A stretch of 64,000 nt of DNA. Source: an uncultured Candidatus Binatia bacterium. GTDB taxonomy: Bacteria > Desulfobacterota > Binatia > UBA9968 > JAJDTQ01. Within the stretch, counting starts at the first letter, position 1. Each line of letters opens with the position of its first letter. Positions 3,700 to 62,240 of the stretch are shown here, one piece after another. The notes under the pieces were generated by a model. It was not told the origin of the DNA, did not search any database, and was given only the letters and a program-made list of their open reading frames with translations. Location: positions 1,609,214-1,673,213 of the forward strand of contig OZ251459.1 in NCBI GenBank assembly GCA_965242525.1, written 5' to 3'. A program made the translations under genes and the position numbers.

Positions 3700-4080
3700 C
3701 TGTGGGGGCGCTTCAGGAATTCGTGTGGGTTGCGACACTTCCCATCCCGTCATCCCCGCGAAAGCCCCGTCTCGTCATTCCCGCGAAAGCGGGAATCCAT
3801 CCACTTTCCTCGCTCTTGTTGTAAAAACCTCTCATACAGGGCGCTATGGGGTTTGCTCGCAGGGTCTGGATTCCCGCCCCCGCTTCCGCGAGGACATGCT
3901 TTCGCGGGAATGACGGCGTGGGCGTCTGTGGAGCAATGACGGCGTGCCCCCTGTCGCTCCCCCTTTCCCTCTTGCCTTGCCCACACGAAAGCCGGAAGAG
4001 CCCCCTATGGGAAAGCGCGTCCTTCGACTTCGCTTCGCTCAGGACGAACGGGGTTCGTAGTTCAGGGTTTCCAAATCCGG
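3700..4080. repeat. MITE cluster containing family 2 (TIR CCGTCATTCCCGCGAAAGCGGGAATCCATC) and a partial family 1 copy (GCGTCCTTCGACTTCGCTTCGCTCAGGACGAACGG)
   Basis: Palindromic GTCATTCCCGCGAAAGC / GCTTTCGCGGGAATGAC arms are present, and the same units recur at about 11.2, 24.3, 25.1, 29.2, 42.3 and 45.9 kb. Confidence 0.8.
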
Positions 4081-4084
4081 CTTT

Positions 4085-4111
4085 ATCCAGTATAGTATAA
4101 AGGCATAATTT
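4085..4111 (+). promoter_or_regulatory. AT-rich putative promoter (CCAGTATAGTATAAAGGCATAATTT) upstream of the tandem repeat and HlyD gene
   Basis: This is a conspicuous AT island in a 70% GC background, with TATAGT/TATAAA -10-like hexamers, about 215 bp upstream of the HlyD start. Confidence 0.35.
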
Positions 4112-4238
4112 CGTCAGGCCCGTCAGGCCCGTCAGGCCCGTCAGGCCCGTCAGGCCCGTCAGGCCCGTCAGGCCCGTCAGGCCCGTCAGGCCCGTCAGGC
4201 CCGTCAGGCCCGTCAGGCCCGTCAGGCCCGTCAGGCCC
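4112..4238. repeat. Perfect 9-bp tandem repeat (CGTCAGGCC) x ~14
   Basis: The repeat is read directly from 4112 to about 4238. It translates as a (GPD)n artefact on the minus strand, and lies between the AT-rich element and the HlyD start. Confidence 0.95.
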
Positions 4239-4325
4239 GGTCTTCCGGCCGTGGTGGCGTCCCGCCCGGTCGGAACCCGGGCGCGCGCCTCCGGCGCCGG
4301 CGGGCATCCCGGAGCATTGACGCAC

Positions 4326-5228
4326 GTGTCCCTGTTCTACAACAAACTTTTCCGGGAGGAAGCCGTCGCCCGTCGGGCGAGCGGGGACCCACTGGACGAA
4401 CGGCTCCAGGTCACGGCCCGGCACGAGTGGATGGTGCTGGCGGGGCTCGGCTTGGCGCTCCTGCTGCTGCTCGTCTGGGGGGTCTTCGGAAGCGTGGAGC
4501 GCAGCCTTTCGGTCAAGGCCGTGCTGGTCCAGCCGGGCGAGCGCTACGCGGTGCTGTCACCCGTGTCCGGCAACGTGGTCGAACTCCTGGCCGAGGTCGG
4601 AGACACCCTCCAGGCCGGACAGGGCATCGCCCGGGTCCGTCTCCCGGAAGCCGAGCGCCAAGTCCGGATCACCCGGAGGATCCTGGACGCCGTCCGGGAC
4701 GGGACGGGAGGCGCCGCAACCGCCGAGATCCGGGCGGCGCTGCTCACCGCGGCGCGGGCCGAGGTCGAAGCCGTCGAGTCCCGCGCCGCGGAATCCATCG
4801 TGGCCCGGCGCGAGGGCCGGCTCGTGGCGCATCGCCTGGTCCCGGGCCAGCCGGTGCGCACCGGCGAGACCGTGGCCCAGGTCCGGGGCAGTTCCGATGA
4901 GCCGTGGCAGGCGCTGGCCTTCGTGTCGGCGCGGGACGCCGGGAAACTCGAAGCGGGCATGGAGGCGGAGGTGCGGGTGGCGCTGCCCGGGCGGCCGGGG
5001 ACCAGCCGGTTGGAAGCCCGGGTCCTGGAGGTGTCGCCCCGGACCGTGGCCGCCCCGCAATGGCTTGCGGACCTGGGCCTTGCCGCGCCCGCGCCGGCGC
5101 ACCTGCTGCGGCTGGTCCTGAGCGACCGGCCGCGCCTGCCGCTCGCCGACGGCGCCGGCGGACACGTGCGGATCGTGCTGGGGAACCGGTCCCCTGCGGC
5201 CCTGCTGCTGGCCAACACCGACCTCTGA
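4326..5228 (+). CDS. HlyD-family secretion adaptor of an NHLM/NHLP-type bacteriocin export system
   Basis: GTG start followed by [51 protein letters not shown] (N-terminal TM) and then a coiled-coil/beta-barrel-like region. The gene immediately precedes the C39-ABC gene. Confidence 0.75.
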
Positions 5229-5268
5229 TGCCTGCCGCGGTCTCGAACACCTGGGAGGAAACGCCGGC

Positions 5269-7482
5269 TTGAACGCGACGCCGAAGCGAGGGCGCGCTGC
5301 GCCGGAGCGGCGCCGGGCGCGCACGCCCCTGATGCTGCAACTCACCGAGACCGAGTGCGGGGCGGTGTGCCTCGGCATCGTGCTTGCGCACTTCGGGCGC
5401 TGGGTATCCGTCGAGGAGTTGCGGGAAACCTGCTCGGTGGGCCGGGACGGGTGCTCCGCGGCCGACATCTTCCGCGCGGCGCAGCGGTACGGCCTGGAGG
5501 CCCAGGGATGGCGCAGGCAGCCGAAGCACCTCCGCGGCATGCCGTTGCCCATGATCATCTTCTGGGAGTTCAACCATTTCGTGGTGCTGGAAGGCTTCCG
5601 CGGGGACCGGTTCCTGATCAACGACCCGGGCAGCGGCCACCGGACGGTCAGCGCGGAAGAGTTCGACCGGGCGTTCACGGGCGTGACGCTGACGCTCCGA
5701 CCGAAGCCCGAGTTCCGTCCGGGCGGCGTCCGCCCCGGTCTCCTGCACCGGATCCTGCCGTGGCTGCGCGACGTGAAGGAGCCGCTCGCGTTCGCCATGT
5801 GCTGCGGGCTGCTGCTGACCCTGCCCTCCCTCGCCATGCCGTTCCTGGTGGGCCTGTTCGTGGACTTCGTGCTGTCCGGGCGCGAACCGTCCTGGAGCGC
5901 GGCGCTGACCGGGAGCCTCGTGGGGGCCGCGGCCCTGCTCTACCTCCTGACTTGGCTCCGGGAACGCTGCCTCCGGCTGCTCTCCGTGCGCCTCGCCATC
6001 GACCACGGCGCGCGCTTCATGGAGCGGCTGTTCCGGCTTCCCATGGGGTTCTTCACCCACCGGCTGTCCGGCGACCTGACCTCCCGGATACAGCTCCTCG
6101 ACACGGTCTCGAACGTGGCCGCGCACCACCTGGCCGGCATCTCCATCGAGATCGTCACCAGCATGGCGTTCCTTGGGCTCATGCTGGCGTACGACCCGCT
6201 GCTCTGCGCCGTGGTGGTGGGACTGGGCGCGCTCAGCGCGGTGGCCATGCGCGTCCTGGCCCGGGTCCGGGTGGACGAGAACCGCAGGCTCAGGCGCGAG
6301 CAGGGCATGCTGTACGGCATCGGCATGTTCGGGGCCGGCAAGATCGACGCCTTGCAGGCGTCCGCCGCGGAGGACGACTTCTTCTCCCGCTGGACGGGAT
6401 ACCAGGCGCGGGAACTGGCCGCCCGGCAACGGTTCACCGAGCTCGGCCACCTCAACGCGGCCCTGCCCCTGCTGTTCCTGATCGCGGGCAACGCCGCGGT
6501 GCTGGGCATCGGCGGCTGGCGGGTGATGGCGGGCGACCTGACGGTGGGCATGCTGACGGCCTTCTACATGGCGGCGGTGAACTTCCTGCAGCCCATAGGA
6601 CGGTTCATCCAGTTCGCCGACATGTTCCAGATGCTGGAGGCGGACCTGCAGCGCCTCGACGACGTGTTCGACGCGTCCGAGGACCGCACCTTCCATCCGG
6701 CGGCGCCCTCTCCCCAGGGGGAGGAGGGGGAAGTCTCGACGTTGGCCGGGCGGCTGCGTCTGAAAGGCCGGGTCGAGCTGCGCAACGTCACCTTCGGCTA
6801 CCAGAAGAACCGCGAACCCCTGATCGAGGACTTCAACCTGACCATCGAGCCGGGCCAGCGCGTGGCCGTGGTCGGCCCCAGCGGCTCCGGCAAGTCCACG
6901 CTCTCGGCGCTGGTGGCCGGCCTCCAGCAACCGTGGTCCGGGGAGATCCTCATCGACAGGCACCCGCGCAGCGCCATCCCGCGGGAGGTGCTGACCAGTT
7001 CCGTGTCCCTCGTGGACCAGCACATCTTCCTGTTCGGGGGCACCGTGCGCGAGAACCTGACCATGTGGATCCCCGAGGTGCCGGACCAGATCCTGGTGGC
7101 GGCCGCCCAGGACGCGGCCATCCACGCGGAGATCATCTCCCGGCCCCTGGGGTACGACGCGCCGGTGGACGAGGGAGGACGCAACTTCAGCGGCGGCCAG
7201 CGGCAGCGGCTGGAGATCGCCCGGGCCCTGGTCAACAACCCGTCGGTCCTGATCCTGGACGAGGCCACCTGCTCCCTCGACACCATCACCGAGGTGCGCA
7301 TCGACGACGCCCTGCGGCGCCGGGGATGCACCTGCCTCATCGTGGCCCATCGGCTGAGCACCATCCGTGACTGCGACCTGATCGTGGTCCTCGACCAAGG
7401 GCGCGAGGTGCAGCGCGGCGCCCACGAGGAGTTGATGCGGGACACGGACGGACTGTACCGCCAACTCGTGGAGTCGTCTTGA
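5269..7482 (+). CDS. Peptidase C39 domain / permease / ATPase ABC exporter (NHLM bacteriocin system)
   Basis: The N-terminus LQLTETECGAVCLGIVLAHFGRW carries the C39 catalytic Cys, followed by 6 TM segments and an NBD with GPSGSGKST, FSGGQRQRLEIARAL and ILDEAT. An alternative start is MLQL at about 5332. Confidence 0.9.
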   Translation: MNATPKRGRAAPERRRARTPLMLQLTETECGAVCLGIVLAHFGRWVSVEELRETCSVGRDGCSAADIFRAAQRYGLEAQGWRRQPKHLRGMPLPMIIFWEFNHFVVLEGFRGDRFLINDPGSGHRTVSAEEFDRAFTGVTLTLRPKPEFRPGGVRPGLLHRILPWLRDVKEPLAFAMCCGLLLTLPSLAMPFLVGLFVDFVLSGREPSWSAALTGSLVGAAALLYLLTWLRERCLRLLSVRLAIDHGARFMERLFRLPMGFFTHRLSGDLTSRIQLLDTVSNVAAHHLAGISIEIVTSMAFLGLMLAYDPLLCAVVVGLGALSAVAMRVLARVRVDENRRLRREQGMLYGIGMFGAGKIDALQASAAEDDFFSRWTGYQARELAARQRFTELGHLNAALPLLFLIAGNAAVLGIGGWRVMAGDLTVGMLTAFYMAAVNFLQPIGRFIQFADMFQMLEADLQRLDDVFDASEDRTFHPAAPSPQGEEGEVSTLAGRLRLKGRVELRNVTFGYQKNREPLIEDFNLTIEPGQRVAVVGPSGSGKSTLSALVAGLQQPWSGEILIDRHPRSAIPREVLTSSVSLVDQHIFLFGGTVRENLTMWIPEVPDQILVAAAQDAAIHAEIISRPLGYDAPVDEGGRNFSGGQRQRLEIARALVNNPSVLILDEATCSLDTITEVRIDDALRRRGCTCLIVAHRLSTIRDCDLIVVLDQGREVQRGAHEELMRDTDGLYRQLVESS

Positions 7483-10418
7483 ACGGGAAGCACCGAACCG
7501 GGGACGTGCGGAAGCCGGCGCCGGGCAGCCTCCGGGAAATCGCCCTCGCGCACGGCGAGCCGTTCATCGGAGGCGGCAACCGCCCCATCCGCCTGTCCGA
7601 CCCCGAGACCCTGTGGTACGTGGTCAAGGGCACCATGGACGTATTCACCGCCCAACATTCCGCGGACAGGGAGACGTCGGACTTCAAGCATCTCCTGCGC
7701 GCGGGCGCCGGCCGGTGGATCTTCAGCATCGCCAACGAGGAGGACGCCTCCACGTCCCTGTACATCGCCAAGGGGCTCCCCGACACCGAGCTCCGCTGCG
7801 TCCCCCGGACCGCCCTGACCGGACCCGGGACGGCCGGACTCCTGGCCGAACAGGCGGACGCCTGGATTGCCGACCTCGCCGCGGCCATCGCCCGGGAAGT
7901 GGAGCCGCGCCCGCGCCCCCAGCGCTTCCTGACCCCGGGCGAGGACGTCGAGGCCGCGGCCGAGAACGTGCTGTCCACCCGCCGCGGCGTGGTCTGGGTC
8001 TCGACCCAGGTGGGGAACGCGGCTTTCCTCGACACCGGCGAGCCTACCGGCAGCGGTCCGGGCTTCATCCCCGTCTCCGCGGGTAGCTGGATACGGCTGT
8101 TCCACCCCTGCCGACTGGCCGTCACCACGTCCGCGGCCCTCGAAGCCGACGGCCTGCTGTTCTCCGCCCTGGCCGAGTTCCATCGACTGGCGCTGTCCGC
8201 GGAGGAAATCAACCGGCGCCTGGTGCTCGTGGACATGGCCAACTTGCAGCGGGCCCACGTCCAGCGCCGGAGCCGGAGCGAAGAGCGCGCCCGGGACAGC
8301 CTGCTCGGCGTGCTGAACGAGCGGCGGTCCCCCGCGGGGGACCGCGGGACCGGCCTGTTGCGCGCCCTGGAGCAGGTGGGCCGCCACGAAGGCATCCGGT
8401 TCCGCACTCCGCCCCGCCGGCGGGGAACGGACGAGGACGCCCCCGACCTGACGGAGATCCAGCGCGTGTCGGGGGTCCGCGCGCGCAGGGTCAAGCTCGC
8501 CGTCGAAGACCATTGGTGGCGCGGCGACAGCGGCGCGATGCTGGCGTTCCGGCGCGAGTCCGGGAACCCGGTGGCGCTGGTCCCGGGCGTGTGGGGCCGT
8601 TACCAGATGATCGACCCGGAGACGGGCCGTTCGGAGCGGGTGGACGAGGGCCTGGCCCGGGACCTCGCTTCCGAGGCGTACTTCTTCTACCGCCCGCTGC
8701 CGCAGGAGGAAACGGTCCGTCCCGGCGCCCTGTTCCGCTTCGCGTTCCGCGGGCTCGGAAAAGACCTGGCGCGCTTCATCCTGGCGGGACTGCTGGTGGG
8801 CCTCATGATGCTGACGCCGCCCATCCTGCTCGGCGCCCTGGTGGACCGCGTGATCCCCAGCGGGTCCGGCTGGCAAGTCCTGGAGCTGTCCCTGTCCCTG
8901 GTCCTGCTGGCGGTCCTCACCGCGCTCCTGCATCTCCTCCAGGGAACCGCCCTGATGCGGCTGGAGGCCGCAGCCGCGGCCCGGGTGGGCGCGGCGCTCT
9001 GGGACCGGCTGCTCGGCCTGCCGCAGCGGTTCTTTCGTCGCTTCTCCTCCGGCGACCTGACCATGCGCACCATGGCCTTCCAGGGACTGCGCGACCAGGT
9101 CTCGGGGGTGGTCGGCAACGCCCTCCTGTCGGTGGTCTTCCTCCTGCCCACCTTCCTGCTGCTGTTCGTCTATGACACCGGGATCGGCTGGCTCGGCCTG
9201 GGGCTGGGACTGTCCTCCCTGGGGGTGACCGCGGCCATCGGCGTCCTCCAGCTACCCCACCAACGGCGCCTGCTCGCCATCTCGAGACGGCTTGCGGGCA
9301 GGCTGGTGCAACTGCTGAACGGCGTCAGCAAGCTGCGGTCCACCGGCTCCGAAGGCATCGGGTTCGCCTTGTGGGCGCAGGACTACCGGGAACAGAAGCA
9401 GACCGAGATGCGGCTCGGCAGGCTGAACGAGCACCTGATCGCCTTCCTGGCGGCCGCGCCCCTGCTGGCCGCGGCCGCGGTGTTCGCCGCGGCCATGCAC
9501 GACGGCCGCGCGGTCCTTCCGGTCGGGGACTTCCTCACCATCTACGCAGCGTTCATGGTGTTCTATTCCGCGGTGGCCAGGCTCGGCGCTTCGTTCTCCG
9601 CGGTGGCCGCGGTCATGCCCGCGTACGAGCAGGTGACCCCGATCCTGGAGTCGAAGCCGGAGACGGGCGCCAAGGGCGAGCCGCCGCCGGAGCTCAGCGG
9701 CGAACTCCACGTGGACCACGTGAACTTCCGCTACACGGAGGACGGTCCCCTGGTCCTGCAGGACGTCTCCATCCACGCACGGGCCGGCGAGTTCGTGGCC
9801 ATCGTGGGGGAATCCGGCGCGGGCAAGAGCACCCTGTTCCGGCTCGCCCTCGGACTCGAGGCGCCGCTGTCGGGGGCCGTTTACTACGACGGGCGCGACC
9901 TCGCGCGACTCAACAAGCGGGCGGTGCGCAGCAGGATCAGCATGGTGGTGCAGGACGTGTCGCTGCACCCCGGCACCGTGCTGGAGAACATCGTCGGAGT
10001 GTCCGGGAACCTCACCGAGGACGACGCCTGGCGGGCCGCCCGCCAGGCCAGCGTGGACGAAGACATCGCCGCCATGCCCATGCAGATGCACACCCCGACC
10101 GGAGACAAGTCCGCGACTTTCTCGGGCGGGCAGATCCAGCGGATCATGCTGGCCGCGGCGCTGGTCCGGGACCCGAGCGTCCTGTTCCTCGACGAGGCCA
10201 CCAACTGGCTCGACAACAAGAGCCAGGCGCAAGTGATGCACAACGTGGCCGAGCTTGCCGTCACCCGGTTCGTGACGGCCCACCGCCTGTCCACCATCCG
10301 CATGGCCAACCGCATCTACGTGCTGCAGGACGGCCGGGTGGTCCAGACCGGAACCTTCGACGAGCTGTTCGAGATCGACGGCCCCTTCCGCAACCTGGTG
10401 CGGCGGCAAATGGCCTGA
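7479..10418 (+). CDS. Second large ABC transporter of the NHLM tripartite system, with an N-terminal non-transporter domain
   Basis: The protein is 979 aa, and the start overlaps the upstream stop (ATGA). The N-terminal ~400 aa are not TMD-like, followed by a TMD (LLVGLMMLTPPILLGALV) and an NBD with GESGAGKST, FSGGQIQRIML and LFLDEAT. Confidence 0.85.
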   Translation: MNGKHRTGDVRKPAPGSLREIALAHGEPFIGGGNRPIRLSDPETLWYVVKGTMDVFTAQHSADRETSDFKHLLRAGAGRWIFSIANEEDASTSLYIAKGLPDTELRCVPRTALTGPGTAGLLAEQADAWIADLAAAIAREVEPRPRPQRFLTPGEDVEAAAENVLSTRRGVVWVSTQVGNAAFLDTGEPTGSGPGFIPVSAGSWIRLFHPCRLAVTTSAALEADGLLFSALAEFHRLALSAEEINRRLVLVDMANLQRAHVQRRSRSEERARDSLLGVLNERRSPAGDRGTGLLRALEQVGRHEGIRFRTPPRRRGTDEDAPDLTEIQRVSGVRARRVKLAVEDHWWRGDSGAMLAFRRESGNPVALVPGVWGRYQMIDPETGRSERVDEGLARDLASEAYFFYRPLPQEETVRPGALFRFAFRGLGKDLARFILAGLLVGLMMLTPPILLGALVDRVIPSGSGWQVLELSLSLVLLAVLTALLHLLQGTALMRLEAAAAARVGAALWDRLLGLPQRFFRRFSSGDLTMRTMAFQGLRDQVSGVVGNALLSVVFLLPTFLLLFVYDTGIGWLGLGLGLSSLGVTAAIGVLQLPHQRRLLAISRRLAGRLVQLLNGVSKLRSTGSEGIGFALWAQDYREQKQTEMRLGRLNEHLIAFLAAAPLLAAAAVFAAAMHDGRAVLPVGDFLTIYAAFMVFYSAVARLGASFSAVAAVMPAYEQVTPILESKPETGAKGEPPPELSGELHVDHVNFRYTEDGPLVLQDVSIHARAGEFVAIVGESGAGKSTLFRLALGLEAPLSGAVYYDGRDLARLNKRAVRSRISMVVQDVSLHPGTVLENIVGVSGNLTEDDAWRAARQASVDEDIAAMPMQMHTPTGDKSATFSGGQIQRIMLAAALVRDPSVLFLDEATNWLDNKSQAQVMHNVAELAVTRFVTAHRLSTIRMANRIYVLQDGRVVQTGTFDELFEIDGPFRNLVRRQMA

Positions 10419-10499: not shown

Positions 10500-10787
10500 T
10501 TACCAATCGTCGACGATGCTCCGCCCGCTCGGGTTTGGCTGCCATCCGTACACGCCGCCAGCGACCGCCTGCAGGTCGCCGTCGCCCAGCCGGCTGTCGG
10601 GGGGCAGGACCAGATGCGCAGCCTCGCCGCTCTCTTCGTGGACCTCGATGGACAGGGACGCCGGAATGGTGACGCCCAATTCCTGCTCCACCGCCCCCTT
10701 CGGGTCGCTGAGAAGCCGGGCGCGGAACTCCGCGTCCTCCATCGCCTTGCCCACGATCTTCGCCTGCATTTCCTTCGCCGTTTCCAT
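10500..10787 (-). CDS. NHLP (nitrile hydratase leader peptide) family RiPP precursor A
   Basis: Full sequence METAKEMQAKIVGKAMEDAEFRARLLSDPKGAVEQELGVTIPASLSIEVHEESGEAAHLVLPPDSRLGDGDLQAVAGG|VYGWQPNPSGRSIVDDW. It carries a classic NHLP leader, a double-Gly C39 cleavage site, a 17-aa core and a GGAGG SD. Confidence 0.9.
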   Translation of the reverse strand: METAKEMQAKIVGKAMEDAEFRARLLSDPKGAVEQELGVTIPASLSIEVHEESGEAAHLVLPPDSRLGDGDLQAVAGGVYGWQPNPSGRSIVDDW

Positions 10788-10823
10788 GGCTCGTCCCTCC
10801 TCGACAGACTGATAACTACGTGC

Positions 10824-10853
10824 AATTTACGATACCGCTTCATCCAATGTCAA
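10824..10853 (-). promoter_or_regulatory. Sigma70-like promoter for precursor A (TTGACA-N18-TAAATT on minus strand)
   Basis: The reverse complement reads TTGACATTGGATGAAGCGGTATCGTAAATT; a homologous block lies upstream of precursor D. Confidence 0.45.
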
Positions 10854-11090: not shown

Positions 11091-11149
11091 GCCCCGTCAT
11101 TCCTGCAAGCGTGCCCTCGTCCGCAGGCACACACATCCGGAAGGTCTGA

Positions 11150-11625
11150 ACAATGTCATACCTCCCTTGGGAATGCGCGTCCTTCGACTTCGCTACGCTA
11201 CGCTCAGGACGAACGGAATGGTTGTTCAGGGTTTCCTTGAAAACCTCTGAACAATCGAAACATCCGGGATGGATTCCCGATTCCCTCACCCTGACGCCCC
11301 TGTCCCCGTTCGTCCTGAGCGTAGCGAAGCGAAAACCTCCGTTCGTCCTGAGCGTAGCGTAGCGAAGTCGAAGGACGCGCTCATGCCCCCTGTCTGTCCC
11401 GATTGTTCAGAGGTTCCCTCGGTCATTCCCGCGAAAGCATGTCCTCGCGGAAGCGGGGGCGGGAATCTCGTCGTACAAGCCTCGATGGATGGATTCCCGC
11501 TTTCGCGGGAATGACGGAGGTGCGTGCCCGCGAACGGGGTGCGTGCCCGCGAACGGGGTGCGTGCCTGCAGGAATGACGGAGGTGGCCGCCGCGGGAACG
11601 ACGGGGTGTGCTTTTGGGCGTTTCG
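11150..11625. repeat. MITE cluster (families 1 and 2)
   Basis: Contains GCGTCCTTCGACTTCGCTACGCTACGCTCAGGACGAACGG, GAACAATCGAAACATCCGGGATGGATTCCC, GTCATTCCCGCGAAAGCATGTCCTCGCGGAAGCGGGGGCGGGAATC and a GATGGATTCCCGCTTTCGCGGGAATGACGG arm. Confidence 0.85.
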
Positions 11626-13067: not shown

Positions 13068-13119
13068 TGGTTTGCTCCTTCCTGGAGAGAGTGACGGCCA
13101 AGCGCGACCCACGGCGGGA

Positions 13120-13410: not shown

Positions 13411-13510
13411 GTTTCGTTCCTCCTCCATCGAGCGATGGTTGCGCACGCCCCACGTTCACGGGCAACCTGCGATACCGGCTCACCGGATGAAGCGACACGG
13501 TCCGGCGGTA

Positions 13511-13810: not shown

Positions 13811-13846
13811 GCCTCGTCCCTCCTCCATAGAGTGCCGAACACGTGC

Positions 13847-42545: not shown

Positions 42546-42654
42546 GGGAGGGTCACTACCCACATGCAAGCCTGAAGCGCCCATCTTCCTTAGTGGCGGA
42601 CCCGGGACAACGCCGCCGTTTGGCGTTCTTGCAAAGAACCGCTAAAATGGCGGC

Positions 42655-45805: not shown

Positions 45806-45819
45806 GGTCATGGGAACCC

Positions 45820-54049: not shown

Positions 54050-54257
54050 ACATGACGGCCGAAAGTCACCCATCAATGGAAAGGAATCCCGTTCGGCCTC
54101 GTCGTGCGGCAGCTTCGCCGCCCGGACCGAAGGGCCTCGGAAGTTGGAAACGTGACCGGCCGGTTCCTCTGTTCGACCCGGTGGGCGGGCCTGGGCGCGT
54201 TGTCGCTTCCGCGGCCGGATGGTAGATGTAGGGAACCGAACGAGGGTTCGACCGCCG

Positions 54258-55511
54258 ATGACGAAGTCCGAGCTACTGGAACTGATTGCCAACGGGGAAA
54301 ACTCCGGAACGGAGTTCAAAGGCGACGAACAGCGTCCGGAACAGGTCGCCAAGGAAATCGTGGCTCTGGCCAACTTCCGGGGCGGCCGACTGTTGCTGGG
54401 CGTGGAGGACGACGGGACCATTGCGGGTATTCGGCGGGATGACCTCGAACGCTGGATCATGGACACGGTGTTCGGCCGAAAGGTGCATCCGATGATCCTG
54501 CCTTTCTACGAAGAGGTCCGGGTCGATGAACGGCGCAGGGTGGCGGTCGTTACGGTCACCCAGGGCGCGTCCAAGCCTTACGTGGTCCGTCACAACGACC
54601 GGGAAGACATCTATGTGCGCATCGGGAGCACGTCACGGTTGGCTACCCGGAAACAGCAGGCGAGACTGCACGCGCTTGGCGGTATGCTCCACACGGAATT
54701 GCTGCCCGTATCCGGCAGTGGACTCCGCGACCTCGGCAAGGAAAGGCTGGAAGACTACCTCATTTCCATGGTCCACGACCGTGAAACGCCCGCCACCGAC
54801 GAGGCATGGGGCGAGCGCCTGTGCGGACTGGGTTTCATGGCCGAACGTCAAGACGGTCCGCCGGTGTGCACGATAGTGGGACTGGTGCTGTTCGGACGCA
54901 GACCGCGGCGTCTGCTGCGGCAGGCCGGCATTCGATGGATGGCCTTCAAGGGCGGCGCCAAGGCTTACGACGCACTGGACGACCAGGTGATCGACGGCCC
55001 GTTGACCGCTCTCCGGGGCGAGTTGTCAGGCCGCGGACGCGAGGTCCTGGAAAACGGAATCATCGAGCGGCTGGCCGACGCCATGCGTCCATTCGTTTCC
55101 GAAGAAACCGGTCGAATCGGCGAGTCCATGCGCCGGGAGCGGACCTGGCACTACCCTCTGGACGCGGTTCGGGAAGCGGTCGTCAACGCCCTCGGCCATC
55201 GAGACTGGACCCGCAACGAAGAGATCGAAGTCGTCCGTTACGCAGACCGGCTGGAAGTGCTGAGCCCCGGTGCGCTCCAGAACACCATGACGGTCGAGAA
55301 GATGATCGCCGGCCAACGTTCCCCGCGCAACCCGCTCATGGTCGAGGTATTGAAGGACTATGGCTATGCGGACGCTCGCGGCATGGGGGTCCGCAACAAG
55401 ATCATTCCCCTGCTGCGAAAAGCGAACGGCGTGGACCCGGAGTTCCAGGTGACCGAAGACCATTTGCGCCTGACCATGCGCAGGGGAGCGAACGCGCAAC
55501 GAGTCGCGTGA
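54258..55511 (+). CDS. AlbA_2 (Schlafen-like divergent AAA) plus HATPase_c_4 domain protein (putative DNA-binding ATP-dependent regulator, RecG-C-like)
   Basis: N-terminus MTKSELLELIANGENSGTEFKG...IVALANFRGGRLLLGVEDDGTIAGI, and C-terminus REAVVNALGHRDW...RNPLMVEVLKDYGYADARGMGV. Confidence 0.7.
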   Translation: MTKSELLELIANGENSGTEFKGDEQRPEQVAKEIVALANFRGGRLLLGVEDDGTIAGIRRDDLERWIMDTVFGRKVHPMILPFYEEVRVDERRRVAVVTVTQGASKPYVVRHNDREDIYVRIGSTSRLATRKQQARLHALGGMLHTELLPVSGSGLRDLGKERLEDYLISMVHDRETPATDEAWGERLCGLGFMAERQDGPPVCTIVGLVLFGRRPRRLLRQAGIRWMAFKGGAKAYDALDDQVIDGPLTALRGELSGRGREVLENGIIERLADAMRPFVSEETGRIGESMRRERTWHYPLDAVREAVVNALGHRDWTRNEEIEVVRYADRLEVLSPGALQNTMTVEKMIAGQRSPRNPLMVEVLKDYGYADARGMGVRNKIIPLLRKANGVDPEFQVTEDHLRLTMRRGANAQRVA

Positions 55512-55536
55512 CCCCGGCTGACGCCGGGCGCGCCTC

Positions 55537-58500
55537 TTACGGCGCCGGGACGCTTCCGCCTTGGGTCCCGGGTCGGTAGGTCTCCCGGAAGACGGTCTCG
55601 GAGAGCCATTTCTCGAACGACGGGTTGTCGCTGAACTGCTTGAACAACTCGGTGTGGTCCGCGAGCAGCTCGGTCATGGCGCGGCGCAGGGCCTTGTCGT
55701 GTTCGATGCGCGCGTTCTGCCGGTCGGAGTTGGCCATGGCGTTCCGGTACGCCCTGTCACCGGCCACCTTGGCGGGCAGTTCCTCGGCGATGACCTTGGC
55801 GATCTTGTCCTGGTCCTTCCACTCGATGTTGCCGAACCTGTCGTTGAACTCCTCCAGGATGCGGGAGAGCCGGTCCATCTCCGGTTCCGGCTTCTGTCCG
55901 CCGCCCTCGACGGACGCCGGCGGGACCTCCGCATCCTGGTCGGGAAGCTGGACGTCCTGCACCGCCTGCTTCTCGACCCGGTAGCTGTCCATGTCGATGG
56001 CGTCGAGTATCCCCCTGGACAGGTCGTCCTCGACCGGAGCCGGCAGCTTGCGGACGAGGAAGTTCAGGAAGATGGAGAGCTTCTCCCACTCGGCGTTGGT
56101 GTAGGGCAGGATGGCGCCCAGGAAATCGTAGGCCCGGAGGAACGCCTTGGCCTTGCCCTTGAAGTCCACCTGTCCGTCCTCGTCCAGGTTGTCCAGGTAG
56201 ATGGAGACGCAGGCGTCCAGGATCGGGTCGAGCCGGTCGCGGCCGGCCCCCGAGAGGTACTGCTCCACCAACTCGTCCACCTGCGACGGGCCATGGACCT
56301 GGTAGCTGTCGAGGGACGCCTTGAGGTCGTGGAGACGGTTCGGGTCGGTCTCGTCCGCCAGGAGCGTGGTCCGGTAATAGTCGGCGAAGGCGCCCCGTAT
56401 GGCGTCCGCATGGTTGGCGAAGTCCAGCACGAAGGCGTCGTGCTTCCCGGGGCGCGCCCGGTTGAGACGCGACAGGGTCTGCACCGCCTTCACCCCGGAC
56501 AGCGGCTTGTCCACGTACATGGTGTGCAGCAACGGCTCGTCGTAGCCGGTCTGGAACTTGTCGGCGCAGACCAGGAAGCGGTACGGGTCTTGCCGGATGC
56601 GGTCGGCGATGAGGTTCGACGAGAAGCCGTTGAGGGACGCCTCGGTGACCGTCGCGCCCTCGTACTCGTGCTCGCCGGAGAAGGCGACCATGGCCCGGTA
56701 GGGGCTCTTCCTCTCCGCGAGGTAGGCGCGGATGGCGTGGTAATAGCTCACGGCGCGCCGGACGCTGCTCGTCACCACCATGGCGCGCGCCTGTCCGCCG
56801 ATCTTCCGCAGGTCGGCCACCTGCTCGTGGAAGTGGTCCACCATGATCTCGGCCTTGAGGCGGATGGGGTGCTCGTGGTCCTCCACGTAGCGGCGCAGCT
56901 TCTTCCCGGCCCGCTTGGCGTCGAACACCGGGTCGCCCGCCACCGTCTTGACCAACTGGCAGTAGGCGTCCACCGGCGTGTAATGCTTCAGCACGTCGAT
57001 GATGAACCCTTCCTGTACGGCCTGCTTCATGGTGTAGGAGTGGAAGGGAACGTGCCGGGTCTTCCCGTCTTCGGGAACGGGCGCGCCGAAGATCTCCAGG
57101 GTCTTGTTCTTGGGGGTGGCGGTGAAGGCGAAGTAGCTGGCGTTGGGCAAGAGCTTCCTGGACTCCATCAGGCGGTTGATCTTGTCCTCCGCGGTCTCTT
57201 CCTCCCCTTCCGCGCCGGCCTCCCCCAGCGCCATGGACACCGACGCCGAAGCGCGTCCTCCCTGGCTCGAATGGGCTTCGTCGATGACAACGGCGAACTT
57301 GCGCCCCCGGTGCTCGTCGCCCATGGCCTCCAGGATATAGGGGAACTTCTGCACCGTGGTGATGACGATGCGCTTGCCCTCCCGGAGCAGCGTCCGCAGA
57401 CGGCCGGAGGTCTCGGCATGGCCCACGACGGCGCCCACCTGCGCGAACTGCCTGATGGTGTCCCTTATCTGCCCGTCCAACACCTTCCGGTCCGTGACCA
57501 CCACCACGGAATCGAAGAGCGCTCCACCGTCCCGCTCCAGACCGATCAACTGGTGGGCCAACCACGCGATGGAGTTGGACTTGCCGCTGCCCGCGGAGTG
57601 CTGGACCAGGTAGCGGGCTCCGACGCCGCGCTCGGACGCGTCGGCCAGCAACCGGCGCACCACATCGAGCTGGTGGTAGCGAGGCCATACCTGCACCCGC
57701 CTCTTGCGCCCCGTGCCCTCGTCCCTGGTCTCCAGGAGCTGGGCGTAGTTCTCGATGACATCGGTCAACCGGTCGCGGGTGAGGATCTGATTCCACAGGT
57801 AGTCGGTCTTGAGGCCGTCGGGGTTGGGCGGATTGCCCGCGCCATCGTTCCAGCCCCGGTTGAAAGGCAGGAACCACGACTCCTTGCCCCTGAGATGGGT
57901 GCAGAAACGGACCTCGTGTTCATCCACCGCAAAGTGGGCCAGGCAGCGGCCAAGCTCGAAGAGCTTCTCGCCCGGGCGCCGGTCGCGCTTGTACTGCTCC
58001 ACCGCGTCGTCCACCGTCTGCTTGGTGAGGCGGTTCTTCAACTCGAAGGTGGCCACCGGCAGGCCGTTGACGAACAGGCACAGGTCCAGGGCAAGCCGAG
58101 TCTCGTCAAGGCTGTACCGGAGTTGCCTCGTCACGCTGAACCGGTTCCGTGCGTAGAGGCTTTCGGCCCTCTCGTTCCCCGCAGACGGCGTGCCGTAGAA
58201 CAGGTCCAGGTGGTGCGGCCCATGCTTGACGCCCTTGCGCAGCAAGTCGATGGTCCCGCGCCTGCCCACCTGCCCTTGCAGCCGGGCCAGGAACTTGCGC
58301 CGCGCGGGGCCGTCCTGGGCCAGGTCCAGCGACGCGGCCGCCTCGGGCTGGGTGGCGCGGAGGAAAGCCGAAAGCTGGGCCAAGTCGACGCAGTACTCCC
58401 GGTCGTAGTCCCGCGGGTCCCCGCAAATCCAGCCCGCGCCGCAACCCGACCGCGGTTCGCGCCCCACGCCCTCCTGCGCCGGGTCGCACGCGCTCCCTGT

Positions 58501-58554
58501 CAGCGCCGTGCAGATGAGGCGCTCCAGGCCGCGCTCGGTGGTGTCCGTGGTCAT
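55537..58554 (-). CDS. hsdR: Type I restriction enzyme R subunit
   Basis: N-terminal nuclease region, then helicase motif I VQHSAGSGKS and motif II VVIDEAHSSQ, with a motif VI region QTLSRLNR. The start was set at MTTDTTERGL, because the longer ORF runs into a MITE remnant. Confidence 0.85.
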   Translation of the reverse strand: MTTDTTERGLERLICTALTGSACDPAQEGVGREPRSGCGAGWICGDPRDYDREYCVDLAQLSAFLRATQPEAAASLDLAQDGPARRKFLARLQGQVGRRGTIDLLRKGVKHGPHHLDLFYGTPSAGNERAESLYARNRFSVTRQLRYSLDETRLALDLCLFVNGLPVATFELKNRLTKQTVDDAVEQYKRDRRPGEKLFELGRCLAHFAVDEHEVRFCTHLRGKESWFLPFNRGWNDGAGNPPNPDGLKTDYLWNQILTRDRLTDVIENYAQLLETRDEGTGRKRRVQVWPRYHQLDVVRRLLADASERGVGARYLVQHSAGSGKSNSIAWLAHQLIGLERDGGALFDSVVVVTDRKVLDGQIRDTIRQFAQVGAVVGHAETSGRLRTLLREGKRIVITTVQKFPYILEAMGDEHRGRKFAVVIDEAHSSQGGRASASVSMALGEAGAEGEEETAEDKINRLMESRKLLPNASYFAFTATPKNKTLEIFGAPVPEDGKTRHVPFHSYTMKQAVQEGFIIDVLKHYTPVDAYCQLVKTVAGDPVFDAKRAGKKLRRYVEDHEHPIRLKAEIMVDHFHEQVADLRKIGGQARAMVVTSSVRRAVSYYHAIRAYLAERKSPYRAMVAFSGEHEYEGATVTEASLNGFSSNLIADRIRQDPYRFLVCADKFQTGYDEPLLHTMYVDKPLSGVKAVQTLSRLNRARPGKHDAFVLDFANHADAIRGAFADYYRTTLLADETDPNRLHDLKASLDSYQVHGPSQVDELVEQYLSGAGRDRLDPILDACVSIYLDNLDEDGQVDFKGKAKAFLRAYDFLGAILPYTNAEWEKLSIFLNFLVRKLPAPVEDDLSRGILDAIDMDSYRVEKQAVQDVQLPDQDAEVPPASVEGGGQKPEPEMDRLSRILEEFNDRFGNIEWKDQDKIAKVIAEELPAKVAGDRAYRNAMANSDRQNARIEHDKALRRAMTELLADHTELFKQFSDNPSFEKWLSETVFRETYRPGTQGGSVPAP

Positions 58555-58607
58555 GGTCCGGATTCCGGTCCTGCATGGAACGGGTTGATTACCCGCAGGC
58601 CGCCGCA

Positions 58608-58676
58608 AGGAAACCCTGAACAATCGTCCTCGTTCGTCCTGAGCGTAGCGAAGCGAAGTCGAAGGACGCGCTGACG
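58608..58676. repeat. Partial MITE family 1 copy
   Basis: Sequence GGAAACCCTGAACAATCG...CGTTCGTCCTGAGCGTAGCGAAGCGAAGTCGAAGGACGCGC. Confidence 0.8.
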
Positions 58677-58697
58677 GCGTAGAGCAGCACGCTGGTG

Positions 58698-59018
58698 TCA
58701 ACGAATCGCATCGGGTCCGTTCATCGCTTCATCGTACAGCTCTTCCCGGGTCAGCCGATCGGAGGCTTGCAGCCCCAGACGCCGCGCATCCAGATCCGCG
58801 AAGAACTCGTCCAGCCGCCTGCGCCGACGCTCCAACTCCGGCTCTCTCTCCCCTTCCGCACCCGGTTCGTTGGCCGCCATAGCGTCCTCGCCGCGGTCGG
58901 CCGCGAGGCCATTGAGATAGCCGCGCACCAGCGCCGAGACCGACGTGCCGGCCTCCGTAGCCTTGGCATGGGCGACGCGGTAGGTCTCCTCGTCCAACGA
59001 AACGGTGACGTTCTTCAT
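58698..59018 (-). CDS. Ribbon-helix-helix (CopG/StbC-like) antitoxin-type protein
   Basis: Sequence MKNVTVSLDEETYRVAHAKATEAGTSVSALVRGYLNGL. The ORF-track N-terminal extension was rejected. Confidence 0.6.
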   Translation of the reverse strand: MKNVTVSLDEETYRVAHAKATEAGTSVSALVRGYLNGLAADRGEDAMAANEPGAEGEREPELERRRRRLDEFFADLDARRLGLQASDRLTREELYDEAMNGPDAIR

Positions 59019-59218
59019 CCTTGCGACCTCACCATCAGCCTGACTCACAATATACCAGCAATCGACCCTCCGGCGCACCACGGTCTCGCGGGCTCCCTTT
59101 CTCCGGCAATCGGTGGTGTCGGTGGACGACTTCATTTCTTCAAGGGGCGAACAAGCCCTTCTTCGCCAGGACATCGACCGCCATCGGCATAGCCCGACCA
59201 GAGCGGTGCGCCCTGCCG

Positions 59219-59722
59219 TCATCTCGGAAATGTCGGTTGAAGGGTTGAGTCGCCGGGCCGCCGAACCTCCCACGGCTCGAACACCACCACCTTCAGATCG
59301 TGGAACTCCCCCAAGCTGGCCTCGATACGCGGCCGCACCGTAGCCCAGTCCAGGCCGCCCAATCCGCTGCCCAGCGGCGGCAGCGCAATGGAGCCGATAT
59401 TGCGCTCCCGGATCTCTCGGGTCAGGGTGGCAAGACCGGCTTCGATGTCCTCCATTCGGCTCTTGTCCCGCCAGTGGCGCTTGGTCGGGAAGTTGATGAT
59501 GTAGCGCGGGTATATCCGGCCGGTCTCGAAGACGAACAGCCGGCCAGGCTGAACCGTCCCCTGCCTGCATGCCGCGGCGTACGCGTCAAAGTTATCGGGA
59601 AACGCCTTCTTGAACTGCAAAGCAAGGCCGCGCCCCATGACGCCGACACACTTGACGGTGTTGACCAGCGCTTCGGCGTCTTCAGCGATGATGTCGCCTG
59701 TCTTGTATTCGATCATGGCCAA
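59219..59722 (-). CDS. Stand-alone macro-domain protein (ADP-ribose binding/hydrolase; DarG-macrodomain-like)
   Basis: Sequence MAMIEYKTGDIIAEDAEALVNTVKCVGVMGRGLALQFKKAFPDNF...INFPTKRHWRDKSRMEDIEAGL...ALPPLGSGLGGLDW. Confidence 0.7.
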   Translation of the reverse strand: MAMIEYKTGDIIAEDAEALVNTVKCVGVMGRGLALQFKKAFPDNFDAYAAACRQGTVQPGRLFVFETGRIYPRYIINFPTKRHWRDKSRMEDIEAGLATLTREIRERNIGSIALPPLGSGLGGLDWATVRPRIEASLGEFHDLKVVVFEPWEVRRPGDSTLQPTFPR

Positions 59723-59879
59723 CCTTCCTTCACCTCAACAATACCAGTCCAGCTTGATTGTGAGTCGCGGTTTATGCGGAGCAGATTGAAGAACTGCATG
59801 ACGCGATAGCACATCGGTAGCGACAAGGTGCCCCTTAGACCGGTTGTCCGCCTATCAAGTGACGCCTACTCTCAAACCC

Positions 59880-60590
59880 TTAATAACCCTTTTTAGAAGG
59901 TGAAAGCAAGGCAGGGAACTCTTTCATCCGGGCAATAACAGCGAACCGTATGTGTTCATTCAGGATGTCCGCTCGACGACATAAAATCCCTTTTTTCTCA
60001 CAGTGCCGTCTAGCAAAAGTCGTTTCTTCCTCCGTAAGAAACTCGGTGATCCTCACATAATCATCCACTTTCCACATTGGATCGCAAAGATCGTCGATGT
60101 CGTGAACTTCGTCGAGCGATTTTGATTTCTCCAAGAATTGCCCTGCCAACTCAGCTACATATAAGTCGAACTCTGGCCGATTGTAAATCATCCTGTAACG
60201 CCTGTAGGAGTCTTCCTCGTTTTTTCTGATACCTCGCATGATCTTCTGTCTTTTTTTATCATCCATGTCCCAAGACCGGTTCAGTTCTAGCGTCATAAAA
60301 TCCATCTCCAAGGTCCGGCAAAGCGCTTCTTTTTCGGCAAAGGAAAGGCAATTATCACCTCTCGCCCATCGATAAATACGCCAAGGCCTAATCTGAGGAT
60401 CACACTGGTAAGCGAGATCCGTCAACGTGCAGTTCTTATCCTTCAAATGCTCTCGAAGCCACTCCGGAGTTTTCCATTTCATACGAAGCTTGGTAATGAA
60501 CGATGCCAACGAGTTTCGCTGCACAAACATCATCACTATCGTTAAAACGCTCGCAATCACGGGGAGAATCACGGAGATTAAGTCTATCAC
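59880..60590 (-). CDS. Hypothetical membrane-anchored protein with XRE-like HTH segment; low-GC island
   Basis: N-terminal TM LISVILPVIASVLTIVMMFV and an HTH-like segment CTLTDLAYQCDPQIRPWRIYRWARGDNCLSFAEKEALCRTL. Lys/Asn/Ile/Phe-rich composition in AT-rich DNA is unlike the rest of the window. Confidence 0.5.
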   Translation of the reverse strand: MIDLISVILPVIASVLTIVMMFVQRNSLASFITKLRMKWKTPEWLREHLKDKNCTLTDLAYQCDPQIRPWRIYRWARGDNCLSFAEKEALCRTLEMDFMTLELNRSWDMDDKKRQKIMRGIRKNEEDSYRRYRMIYNRPEFDLYVAELAGQFLEKSKSLDEVHDIDDLCDPMWKVDDYVRITEFLTEEETTFARRHCEKKGILCRRADILNEHIRFAVIARMKEFPALLSPSKKGY

Positions 60591-60749
60591 TGTTCCGTCA
60601 CCCTTCAGGAGGCTATGTCTTTACCTTTCGATTAGGTTGGTGGGTAGATCCTATTTCGTAAACCATGTTCGGCTTGCAGATTACGCCGTGAGACCCCGCT
60701 CACACGAAAGACTGGAGAATCATCTTTGATTCGGCAGGAACAAGCATGT

Positions 60750-62135
60750 TCAATCTTCCACAGACACCTTGGCCGTTGCTCCACGCACGTCCAGCTTGCC
60801 GGTCACTGCATTGGCGACCAGGCGGGTGCGATACTCGCGGAGCAGGTCGATCTGCCGCCGGGTACGGGCGATGGTACAGTCGATGCCAGCGGTAACTTGG
60901 TCGAGATATAGGACGATAGCGTTTTGTTCCGATAAAGGAGGGAATGCAATTTTGATCTCCCCGATCTCAGCTTCGTTGATTGCAGGAACAGGACCAGGCT
61001 TGGTGATGACTGCCAAGTCGATACGCTGCAATAACGATAGTACGAAGTCAGGATTCCCCCGAGCAACAACGCAGCCCATCAAATTATTGTCGATGCTGGA
61101 AGGTTGTGTCAAGACGCGTCGTTTATTAGTTAGCATCGCACCGCCAACCTTGGGGAAGATAATGGTTCCGACCGGAAAGATTGCTGCTTTCAATGCCGCT
61201 GCTGTATTGTGAGAGACCGAATTATTCCAAGTTTTCACGAACTTGTCATTGCCAGGAAGATTCATGTCAGAGACTTTGAGGAAAGGAACTTCTTGATCTT
61301 GCTGGCCTTGTTGCTCTACAGGAAATCCACTCCCACTCTTGAATGTCCCCAGGTGTTTCAAAGCGAATACATCCCAATGCTCTGGTACATCACCTAGCCA
61401 CTCCACACCCGAAGGTTTGAGCGAGACGCTAGGATCAAGGCCACGGGTGACGGCTTGGGTCACGACGGCCTGTCGCTCATCCTCCAGCAGCGCGATGAGC
61501 CGCTCCTTGGCATCGACGTACCGGCGGATGCGGGCGTCCACGTGATCCAGGTACCGCACGATGGCCGACTGTTCCGATAGGGGCGGGAGAGGAATACGGA
61601 CGGATTTGATGCCAAAGTGGGTAAGACCGTACCGCGTAACGCCGTTCGCCCCTACGTGGAACTGGTAGGCAACCCCCCTGCTCTGCAAAGTCAGAGCCAA
61701 ATATGCCCCGAGTATCGCCTTGCAAGGCCGTAGCAGCGCCAGATGGTAGCCGGAAAGAAGGTCATCCGCTGACTCCGTTACCAGAGCCGGAACTCCAATG
61801 TCGTCCCACGTCTCGGAGTCCTTCGTGACGAGTACGTCGTCTCGCTCCAGCCGGAATCTTTCGATTTCGTCCGGCGATGCCGTTGCGCTCATGAAAGGCA
61901 GGTCCTGGGTTATCCGATCGTTCTTGTAAACATCGACGTAGTTGCACAGACGAACCGGAACTTCGCCCTCCCTCGTGTGCTTATCCACGTTGCTTACGCG
62001 CATTTCCGCTACGGTGCGAAGCCGCCGCACTTTCCAATGCTCCGGCACGTCGCCGAGCCACTCGACACCGGAGGGCTTGTAGGCTGGATAAGGGCGGAGC
62101 TTTTGGAATCTCTCAACAATCGGGACAGGGGGCAT
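60750..62135 (-). CDS. hsdS: Type I R-M specificity subunit; the start codon is possibly supplied by a MITE
   Basis: Two TRDs, each beginning KPSGVEWLGDVPEHW, with conserved PLPPLSEQSAIVRYLD and FPPLSEQNAIVLYLD segments. The second TRD is AT-richer. The ORF extends into the MITE (ALMPPVPIVERF). Confidence 0.8.
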   Translation of the reverse strand: MPPVPIVERFQKLRPYPAYKPSGVEWLGDVPEHWKVRRLRTVAEMRVSNVDKHTREGEVPVRLCNYVDVYKNDRITQDLPFMSATASPDEIERFRLERDDVLVTKDSETWDDIGVPALVTESADDLLSGYHLALLRPCKAILGAYLALTLQSRGVAYQFHVGANGVTRYGLTHFGIKSVRIPLPPLSEQSAIVRYLDHVDARIRRYVDAKERLIALLEDERQAVVTQAVTRGLDPSVSLKPSGVEWLGDVPEHWDVFALKHLGTFKSGSGFPVEQQGQQDQEVPFLKVSDMNLPGNDKFVKTWNNSVSHNTAAALKAAIFPVGTIIFPKVGGAMLTNKRRVLTQPSSIDNNLMGCVVARGNPDFVLSLLQRIDLAVITKPGPVPAINEAEIGEIKIAFPPLSEQNAIVLYLDQVTAGIDCTIARTRRQIDLLREYRTRLVANAVTGKLDVRGATAKVSVED

Positions 62136-62240
62136 GAGCGCGTCCTTCGACTCCGCTTCGCTACGCTCAGGACGAACGGGGATAAGAGAGTCAGGGTGAG
62201 GGAGTCTATCCCGGATGTCTCGCTTGTTCAGAGGTTCCTT
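62105..62240. repeat. MITE family 1 copy overlapping the hsdS 5' end
   Basis: The element runs from CTCTCAACAATCGGGACAGGGGGCATGAGCGCGTCCTTCGACTCCGCTTCGCTACGCTCAGGACGAACGG to CGCTTGTTCAGAGGTTCC. Confidence 0.85.

Follow-up and report, generated by a model that had tools for sequence, protein, structure and literature searches.

Repeat content of the window and of related loci

Two families of short repeats, Family 1 (F1) and Family 2 (F2), lie dispersed in a 64,000-nt stretch of DNA from an uncultured Candidatus Binatia bacterium (contig OZ251459.1). The whole stretch is called the window, and all positions refer to it. Its G+C content is ~70%, and the gene map was built from third-position G+C (GC3) together with Pfam and PADLOC. 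[quoted passage not shown] Self-BLAST located the two families at 12 sites (3741-4072, 11139-11603, 24261-24640, 25086-25559, 27303-27502, 28014-28147, 28977-29716, 42265-42548, 45812-46146, 51556-51650, 58606-58676, and 62105-62238), which comprise ~3.3 kb, or 5% of the window. The F1 end, GGAACCTCTGAACAATCG, was matched 18 times at <=3 mismatches, against 0.07 matches expected; the 40-nt F1 core and the 30-nt F2 end were matched 14 and six times, respectively, with 0 expected for each. Repeats at 12 sites are thus far over chance.

F1 is represented by 16 copies or fragments in the window, several of which stand at gene boundaries as previously described. The 477-bp spacer between a coxM-like gene (FAD-binding, 44936-45805) and a coxL-like gene (molybdopterin, 46283-48601) contains an F1b-like fragment (45812-45923) and a 165-bp F1 copy (45982-46146). 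An F1 fragment consisting of an end-like sequence and the core (58606-58676, minus strand) lies 52 nt before the hsdR start codon at 58554, and a further copy (62105-62238) lies inside the 5' end of hsdS. Two copies that the earlier note had missed, 27303-27502 and 28014-28147, are located within a single 1121-codon open reading frame (ORF) for a DUF1156-type DNA methylase.

We searched for both families in other genomes. A scan for the F1 end with one genome per species gave 23 matches, about as many as expected by chance. The F1 MITE itself was carried only by OZ241979.1, a chromosome of an uncultured Candidatus Binatia bacterium, and several of the other matches were ends of IS5 elements. 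None of 22 matches to the F1 end in JGI metagenomes was accompanied by the F1 core, and viral contigs gave no match to the end. The database protein P0002 has the same sequence as the DUF1156 protein encoded in the window, and homologues of this protein led to three further contigs. L024 is a syntenic contig, 93-97% identical over 14.9-39.4 kb of the window; L025 represents a third genome; and L147 is a fourth contig with unrelated gene content, in which eight F1 cores and nine heads of the F2 hairpin described below were found in 17 kb. Both families are dense in all three contigs and in each of two loci of OZ241979.1 (L001 and L006), with four to eight F1 core matches per related locus; thus, the repeats are not confined to this window. 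The same insertions, target duplications, and a 33-nt in-frame length variant were found in independent assemblies, which ruled out an assembly artefact.

Structure, mobility, and intragenic copies of Family 1

Complete F1 copies are bounded by inverted GGAACCTCTGA(A/T)CAAT ends, with GGAACCTCTGAACAATCG standing at both ends in inverted orientation and terminal inverted repeats of 16-18 bp. They range in length from 105 to 200 bp and contain no transposase gene. Apart from the 134-bp and 132-bp forms there is a "b" form of ~110 bp whose left arm is different, and chimeras and numerous truncated copies also occur. The core …GCGCGTCCTTCGACTTCGCTTCGCTACGCTCAGGACGAACGG is common to all forms; it is a hairpin that includes one to three copies of a 33-bp unit, and the fold of F1 on one strand is more stable than that of shuffled sequence (z = -3.5).

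Target-site duplications (TSDs) were examined in 17 two-ended copies drawn from five sequences, namely the window and the related loci. A perfect 4-bp TSD was present in nine of them, where the chance is 1/256 per copy, and three of four positions matched in four more. Three insertions correspond to precise empty sites in L024, where the 4-mer that is duplicated in the window is found only once. The site of the copy at 28014-28147 reads ACC-TTGT-ATCG (ACCTTGTATCG) in L024 and TTAT-element-TTGT in the window. The short 125-bp form at 24374-24498 (plus strand, intergenic), with the duplication CTTT, is absent from L024, where the exact empty site is found. For the 132-bp copy at 29528-29659 (plus strand), L024 has AGGG and the window has AGGA-element-AGGA. 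F1 is therefore a heterogeneous family of non-autonomous DNA transposons, in agreement with its earlier description as a MITE, and it was recently active, since copies are present or absent between genomes that are ~95% identical.

The remaining intergenic copies are largely incomplete or variant. Next to the short form are an F1b-type fragment with the core and right end (24261-24345, plus strand) and a 141-bp variant with diverged ends, F1c (24500-24640, minus strand), which is also present in L024. A chimeric copy (28977-29123, plus strand), b-type in its left arm and a-type in its right, is likewise present in L024 and ends 14 nt upstream of the GTG start codon of the methylase gene. An F1b-like copy (11139-11236) adjoins a 178-bp F1a copy with two core units (11240-11417), a left half comprising the end and the core (51556-51650, plus strand) lies between divergent amidohydrolase and cupin genes, and an F1b-type fragment (3998-4072, plus strand) abuts the outer arm of an F2 unit.

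The parentage of F1 had been suggested to be IS630/Tc1 or IS5. The duplications are 4 bp long and not TA, which ruled out IS630/Tc1, whereas the ends supported IS5: the F1 end matched the termini of ~1.2-kb elements in Dehalococcoidia metagenome-assembled genomes (MAGs) and metagenome contigs at 18 of 18 positions. These elements have CTAA, TTAG, or CTAG duplications and encode a 317-aa transposase with DDE_Tnp_1 and DUF772 domains; they are IS5-family insertion sequences. Unrelated short MITEs also carry ends of this type. An IS5-family DDE transposase supplied in trans would accordingly be a candidate for the enzyme that moves F1.

A MITE of ~190 bp with the same IS5-type end and a CTAG flank is located at 7540-7727 of a Dehalococcoidia MAG contig (L018). 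It holds a hairpin (CCGTCATTCCCGCGCAGGCAGGAATCCAG) similar to that of F2 and a core related to that of F1 (…CCTTCGACGAGCTCAGGGCGAACGG); thus, the same modular design occurs in another phylum. The right arm of F1 (e.g. 28106-28125) contains GGGAATCCATCC, a sequence that recurs without mismatch in the 3' half of the F2 hairpin and its flank, and F1 may have captured part of such a hairpin.

F1 resembles BrickBuilt, the IS5-derived MITE of Porphyromonas gingivalis (PMC4596501), in being short and non-coding with IS5-type ends and short target duplications, in having an internal tandem repeat (minisatellite) of variable unit number, and in its many partial copies. The two differ in sequence and in the repeat unit, which is 33 bp and frame-keeping in F1 and 23 bp in BrickBuilt. 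Furthermore, unlike BrickBuilt, F1 has no parent insertion sequence detected in the same lineage (~158 kb), and its target 4-mers are not YTAR.

Three F1a copies lie inside restriction-modification genes. The DUF1156/HmaB-like methylase gene (25597-28962, minus strand; Pfam DUF1156, PADLOC HmaB) has 1121 codons and a GTG start, and its ORF reads without a break through both a 134-bp copy (28014-28147, minus strand, duplication TTAT/TTGT), which adds 46 codons, and a 200-bp copy with three 33-bp core units (27303-27502, minus strand), which adds 68 codons including its TSD, GTTG. The third copy, also 134 bp (62105-62238, minus strand, TSD TTTT), follows codon 6 of hsdS (60750-62255, minus strand). 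Deleting this element and one TTTT restores MTDLKKLRPYPAYKPSGVEW…, and the PADLOC HsdS profile starts at residue 52 of the ORF. The earlier note had assigned the only in-frame ATG of hsdS to the MITE. This is incorrect, because the gene has its own ATG upstream at 62255 (MTDLKK), in frame.

The length of the elements together with the TSD is a multiple of three (134 + 4 = 138 nt; 200 + 4 = 204 nt), and each 33-bp unit corresponds to 11 codons. The 134-bp form has exactly one stop-free frame per orientation. Insertions into genes can therefore survive as in-frame peptides. All three intragenic copies have the same orientation and the same open frame, and this frame is broken in five of five complete two-ended intergenic copies of the F1a type. 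Peptides across the junctions include …ALRYKKHLNNREIRDGF… and MTDLKKEPLNKRD….

We aligned the methylase with nine homologues, most of which lack the F1 inserts. The 46-aa insert was found only in the window protein and was absent from all nine. The second insert is 68 aa in the window and 57 aa at the same site in P0003, the protein of L024, and the difference is exactly one 33-nt unit. P0007, encoded in L025, has a b-type element at a third site in this methylase family, of a length that is not reconciled with a clean 3n insertion. When 5.8 billion proteins were searched with the F1 peptide, one 50-aa match was obtained; thus, the in-frame peptide is not widespread in databases.

F1 could alternatively consist of host-selected modules rather than selfish insertions, either regulatory RNAs or terminators at gene boundaries or adaptive linkers tuning restriction-modification enzymes. 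The location of three of three intragenic copies in restriction-modification genes in one frame and the in-frame variation of the 33-nt unit number between close relatives speak for such a role. Between the window and L024, the methylase showed a dN/dS of 0.15-0.26 on both sides of the shared insert, whereas the insert itself had accumulated 2 synonymous and 13 nonsynonymous changes; the peptide is therefore not conserved, and its absence from most homologues also argues against selection by the host. The stable fold on one strand and the copies 14 nt before the methylase start and 52 nt before hsdR are further favourable points. The idea is also countered by the Rfam results (no match in the whole window at the gathering threshold; by E-value, only a chance CRISPR-DR match in 24.2-29.8 kb, which supports no known RNA family) and by promoter-like and terminator-like sites, none of which exceeded shuffled sequence in a scan of 24-30 kb. 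We consider selection of F1 by the host very unlikely. The methylase gene is under purifying selection, and the inserted F1 peptide, whose frame stays open, is carried along as a tolerated passenger that drifts neutrally. The bias of intragenic copies to restriction-modification genes, which concerns three events, is suggestive at most.

This behaviour is comparable with that of Rickettsia palindromic elements (RPE) and of QMITE1 of Coxiella (PMC10969869), which are also palindromic, ~130-150 bp long, and found within ORFs in one conserved frame in host proteins that apparently still function. The resemblance would be functional only, and no kinship in sequence is expected. Unlike RPE, F1 has clear inverted-repeat ends and target duplications, its three intragenic copies are all in restriction-modification genes, and its host is a free-living high-GC lineage.

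Hairpins and nuclease remnants of Family 2

The end of F2 is known from another system. In Neisseria, the GIY-YIG nuclease SsnA binds and cleaves single-stranded DNA at a signal named the Neisseria Transformation Sequence (NTS), CGTCATTCCCGCGMAVGCGGGAATCYRG, which contains the dRS3 palindrome ATTCCC-N8-GGGAAT (PMC11893778). Using the definitions of the NTS, SRM, and dRS3 motifs from that paper, we found that the F2 end, CGTCATTCCCGCGAAAGCGGGAATCCAT, matches the NTS at 27 of 28 bases. Six sites in the window each fit the NTS (<=1 mismatch), the degenerate SRM pattern, and dRS3, and the SRM pattern itself was found six times against 0.62 ± 0.72 in shuffled sequences. The hairpin folds at -13.6 kcal/mol (z = -4.1). 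In a second form of it, the loop is enlarged by a 20-nt insert. The 18-mer head of the NTS was also present in 99 IMG/VR stretches with a G+C content of 41% to 71%, including arrays with the 77-bp periodicity that is characteristic of mosaic elements in Neisseria.

The interior of the 221-bp F2 unit was translated on the minus strand. It reads …VHLLVGYEVPEPMESA, then a frameshift, followed by a 44-residue stretch, and the translation ...LVGYEVPEPMESA aligns with the C-terminal half of GIY-YIG proteins encoded between NTS copies. In IMG/VR, three ORFs of ~100 aa that stand between NTS copies encode GIY-YIG proteins (PF01541, E 1e-14 to 5e-15). The F2 remnant matched NTS-flanked GIY-YIG proteins at 52% identity over 27 aa in BLASTP (E 5e-8) and across the frameshift in tblastn (E 1e-7). 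The 52-aa remnant alone gave no match in Pfam, and a word-indexed search with its peptide returned one 57-aa match; the GIY-YIG proteins were reached only by a full HMMER scan (phmmer) of 1.84 billion representative proteins, which recovered ~100-aa PF01541 proteins ending in the same tail, …DLY…WIPAFAGMT, with the ORF extending into the hairpin. Only truncated and frameshifted ssn remnants lie between the hairpins of the window, whereas homologues of full or near-full length (~100 aa) with PF01541 exist elsewhere. Since the remnant matches Ssn-type GIY-YIG genes, F2 units are read as relics of decayed NTS-ssn-NTS cassettes, which together with satellite half-site repeats form mosaic arrays.

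The units differ in their completeness. In the F2 unit at 25086-25356 (minus strand), sub-repeats of the half-site kind are accompanied by a canonical NTS hairpin (25137-25164), an Ssn-type GIY-YIG remnant with a frameshift (25155-25321, minus strand), and an inverted NTS (25328-25355). A solo long-variant hairpin, an NTS with the 20-nt loop insert, lies at 25509-25559 (plus strand), where L024 has a single short NTS only. The full long-arm unit at 29135-29716 (minus strand) consists of an outer arm, sub-repeats, a long hairpin (29243-29290), an ssn remnant (29283-29449, minus strand), an inverted NTS (29456-29483), sub-repeats with the nested F1 copy, and an inverted outer arm. A minimal unit with sub-repeats (11421-11603) has a long hairpin, 40 nt, and an inverted NTS (11489-11516).

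Shorter units, designated F2b, retain only the last ~20 ssn codons (tblastn with P0124, 74% identity over 23 aa, E 7e-9). One of them (3709-4000) has an NTS at 3773-3800, a short interior with these codons, outer arms, and a reverse-complement copy of the long hairpin with its 5' end at 3915. The other (42265-42548) is flanked by the coxL-like gene and a gene for a DEAD-box helicase and has a long hairpin (42276-42323), an inverted NTS (42413-42440), and decaying 26-bp sub-repeats to 42548. F2b-type units occur not only at these two unrelated loci but also in OZ241979.1; a derivative that arose by deletion has therefore dispersed.

All F2 hairpins are flanked by decaying tandem sub-repeats of 25-26 bp (25086-25136, 29190-29243, 42441-42548, and 11517-11603), which begin with the 5' half of the NTS (CGTCATTCCCGC) and lack the 3' half; this layout of half-sites and full sites recurs in Neisseria-like IMG/VR loci. 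Outer arms (TCTTCCGGCTTTCGTGTGGG…GGGAAAGGGGAGCGA) flank F2 in inverted orientation (29135-29190 and 29660-29716; 3709-3730 and 3950-4000) and often abut an F1b copy. The outer arms and F1b may form a larger composite repeat unit.

The earlier note had taken F2 for a second MITE. If F1 and F2 were both classical MITEs that donate start codons and owe their mobility to one DDE transposase or to two (IS630/Tc1 or IS5), perfect 30-bp inverted repeats around F2 and F2b-type units at several unrelated loci and in OZ241979.1 would be understandable, and F1 does behave in this way. The ends of F2 are themselves hairpins identical to NTS/dRS3 apart from the one base given above, its interior is a nuclease pseudogene with no remnant of a transposase, and a TSD was not definable for F2 or its long arms. 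Duplications of the IS630 kind (TA) were not found, and the ATG of hsdS precedes the insertion, which speaks against donated start codons. On these grounds the MITE assignment failed for F2, and we regard it as unlikely that both families are MITEs of this kind.

It is also conceivable that the F2 hairpins are repetitive extragenic palindromic (REP) sequences or bacterial interspersed mosaic elements (BIMEs) spread by a REP-associated tyrosine transposase (RAYT) of the IS200/IS605-like Y1 kind, or attachment sites of an IS110/Piv-type recombinase. Inverted hairpin pairs resemble REPINs, dRS3 is a documented phage-recombinase target that serves as the attachment site of Neisseria filamentous prophages (PMC11893778), and the 18-mer occurs in the 99 IMG/VR stretches mentioned above. 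The DNA between the F2 hairpins is derived from a GIY-YIG gene, and no Y1 transposase or IS110 recombinase was found among the window ORFs scanned with Pfam, which did not include every ORF. We consider such an origin of F2 very unlikely. The relics of NTS-ssn-NTS cassettes remain our preferred reading of F2.

F2 is similar to the Neisseria NTS-ssnA-NTS arrangement (PMC11893778) in the 27 matching bases, in the inverted hairpins that flank a small GIY-YIG gene whose end runs into the hairpin (…WIPAFAGMT), and in the clustering of repeats in intergenic arrays. It differs in that the gene is a decayed remnant, a second hairpin has the 20-nt loop insert, and the host belongs to another phylum (Binatota-like). 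Like Neisseria intergenic mosaic elements (NIMEs) and REP/BIME arrays, F2 is an intergenic mosaic in which dRS3-type hairpins separate short units; it adjoins variable genes and differs between close relatives. Unlike them, its units between the hairpins are other sequences, it is interleaved with a DDE-type MITE, and no RAYT was seen. By analogy with the Neisseria system, an Ssn nuclease whose gene lies elsewhere in the genome would bind and cleave single-stranded DNA at the hairpins, and the arrays may act as recombination substrates.

Interleaving of the two families and the surrounding genes

The nesting that had been noticed at 29.0-29.7 kb was confirmed: the F1 copy at 29528-29659 lies inside an F2 arm, with the TSD AGGA, and its site is empty in L024. 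Insertion of F1 copies into F2 arms gives rise to the interleaving of the families.

The suggestion that the repeats mark recombination hotspots received limited support, from two observations. The 132-bp F1 copy at 25374-25505 (plus strand, repeat family D6) has no TSD, with AGGA on one side and TCCC on the other; its left flank matches that of the copy at 29528, and its right flank matches L006 6976-7107 in OZ241979.1. This copy is probably a product of recombination between copies. The second observation concerns the methylase. A central region of ~90 aa (window 27054-27302) is unrelated to that of the 93%-identical ortholog in L024, and the divergent cassette sets in exactly where the shared F1 insertion has its left end, a pattern that suggests exchange of the cassette at the F1 element. 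A weaker reading is that the 134-bp F1 is a coding-compatible MITE that persists preferentially in restriction-modification genes and marks a junction of specificity-cassette exchange.

We thus interpret the window as containing two mechanistically unrelated, interleaved repeat systems, an IS5-type MITE (F1) and relics of NTS-ssn-NTS cassettes (F2), with a probability of roughly 0.7. Several points weigh against this interpretation. The check for a cognate transposase proposed in the earlier note was negative, as tblastn with an IS5 transposase found no IS5-family transposase in ~158 kb of Binatia-like DNA. The TSDs of F1 are T-rich 4-mers and not the CTAG, CTAA, or TTAG (YTAR) of the IS5 copies with the same ends, with which they agree in their length of 4 bp. 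The dN/dS of the insert rests on 15 substitutions. The same ~158 kb contained no intact ssn gene, and the match of ~10 N-terminal ssn codons in F2b was weak (E 0.27). L024 covers two F2 loci, and at each of them it carries one hairpin only or an arm of another kind, a polymorphism that could stem equally from an insertion or from a deletion between hairpins. The F2 variants, when aligned, had mosaic interiors, partly in opposite orientation, and gave no single consensus.

The window has several other notable features. Fourteen perfect tandem copies of the 9-bp CGTCAGGCC (4112-4239) lie just upstream of or at the start of an HlyD-family gene (4251-5228), and this frame-preserving array is possibly a slippage tract. 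Four paralogous segments of ~300 bp (10500-10852, 12818-13132, 13120-13475, and 13511-13875), 74-88% identical and with ORFs of ~110 aa, adjoin genes for a C39-peptidase ABC exporter, a second ABC protein, and HlyD (4251-10418). The ~110-aa family looks like precursors of bacteriocins or ribosomally synthesized and post-translationally modified peptides with their export system. An ISL3-family transposase fragment (15873-16631) with a zinc ribbon, a helix-turn-helix, and a partial DDE domain is unrelated to F1 and F2 and is also found in L024, as are two tandem paralogous genes for thiamine-pyrophosphate enzymes (29812-33455) that are ~80% identical over long stretches (D8 and D10). The region 54219-64000 is a defence island that encodes a protein with Schlafen/AlbA_2 and HATPase_c_4 domains, the type I proteins HsdR, HsdS, and HsdM, and a DarG-like macro-domain protein (59219-59722; PADLOC E 2e-75). 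The G+C content drops to 52% at 60-62 kb, across the target-recognition domains of hsdS.

Both kinds of element are already known, F1 joining the IS5-type MITEs and F2 the NTS/Ssn hairpin system. Two points are modestly new: F1 copies lie within restriction-modification genes, and Ssn cassettes have deletion derivatives that are dispersed. Repeat DNA makes up ~5% of the region and gives rise to spurious ORFs, and genes that bear inserts will be split or given wrong starts by gene callers and homology tools. In the methylase and HsdS, the three in-frame insertions add 46-68 transposon-encoded residues each, and the survival of MITEs in frame within functional genes, best known from Rickettsia, extends to a free-living, high-GC, uncultured lineage.

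The hairpins and decayed nuclease cassettes in a Binatia-like genome bear on the mobility of Ssn cassettes, which the 2025 Ssn paper raised only as a hypothesis, with no mention of pseudogenes or remnants (PMC11893778). We tentatively propose, as a possibility that we hold at less than even odds, that F2 and F2b are the first clear non-autonomous, internally deleted derivatives of NTS-ssn-NTS, dispersed to several loci and differing between close relatives. If so, they would lie in a candidate phylum outside the hosts sampled in that paper, and would be direct genomic evidence that Ssn cassettes are, or have been, mobile and seed their own hairpins.

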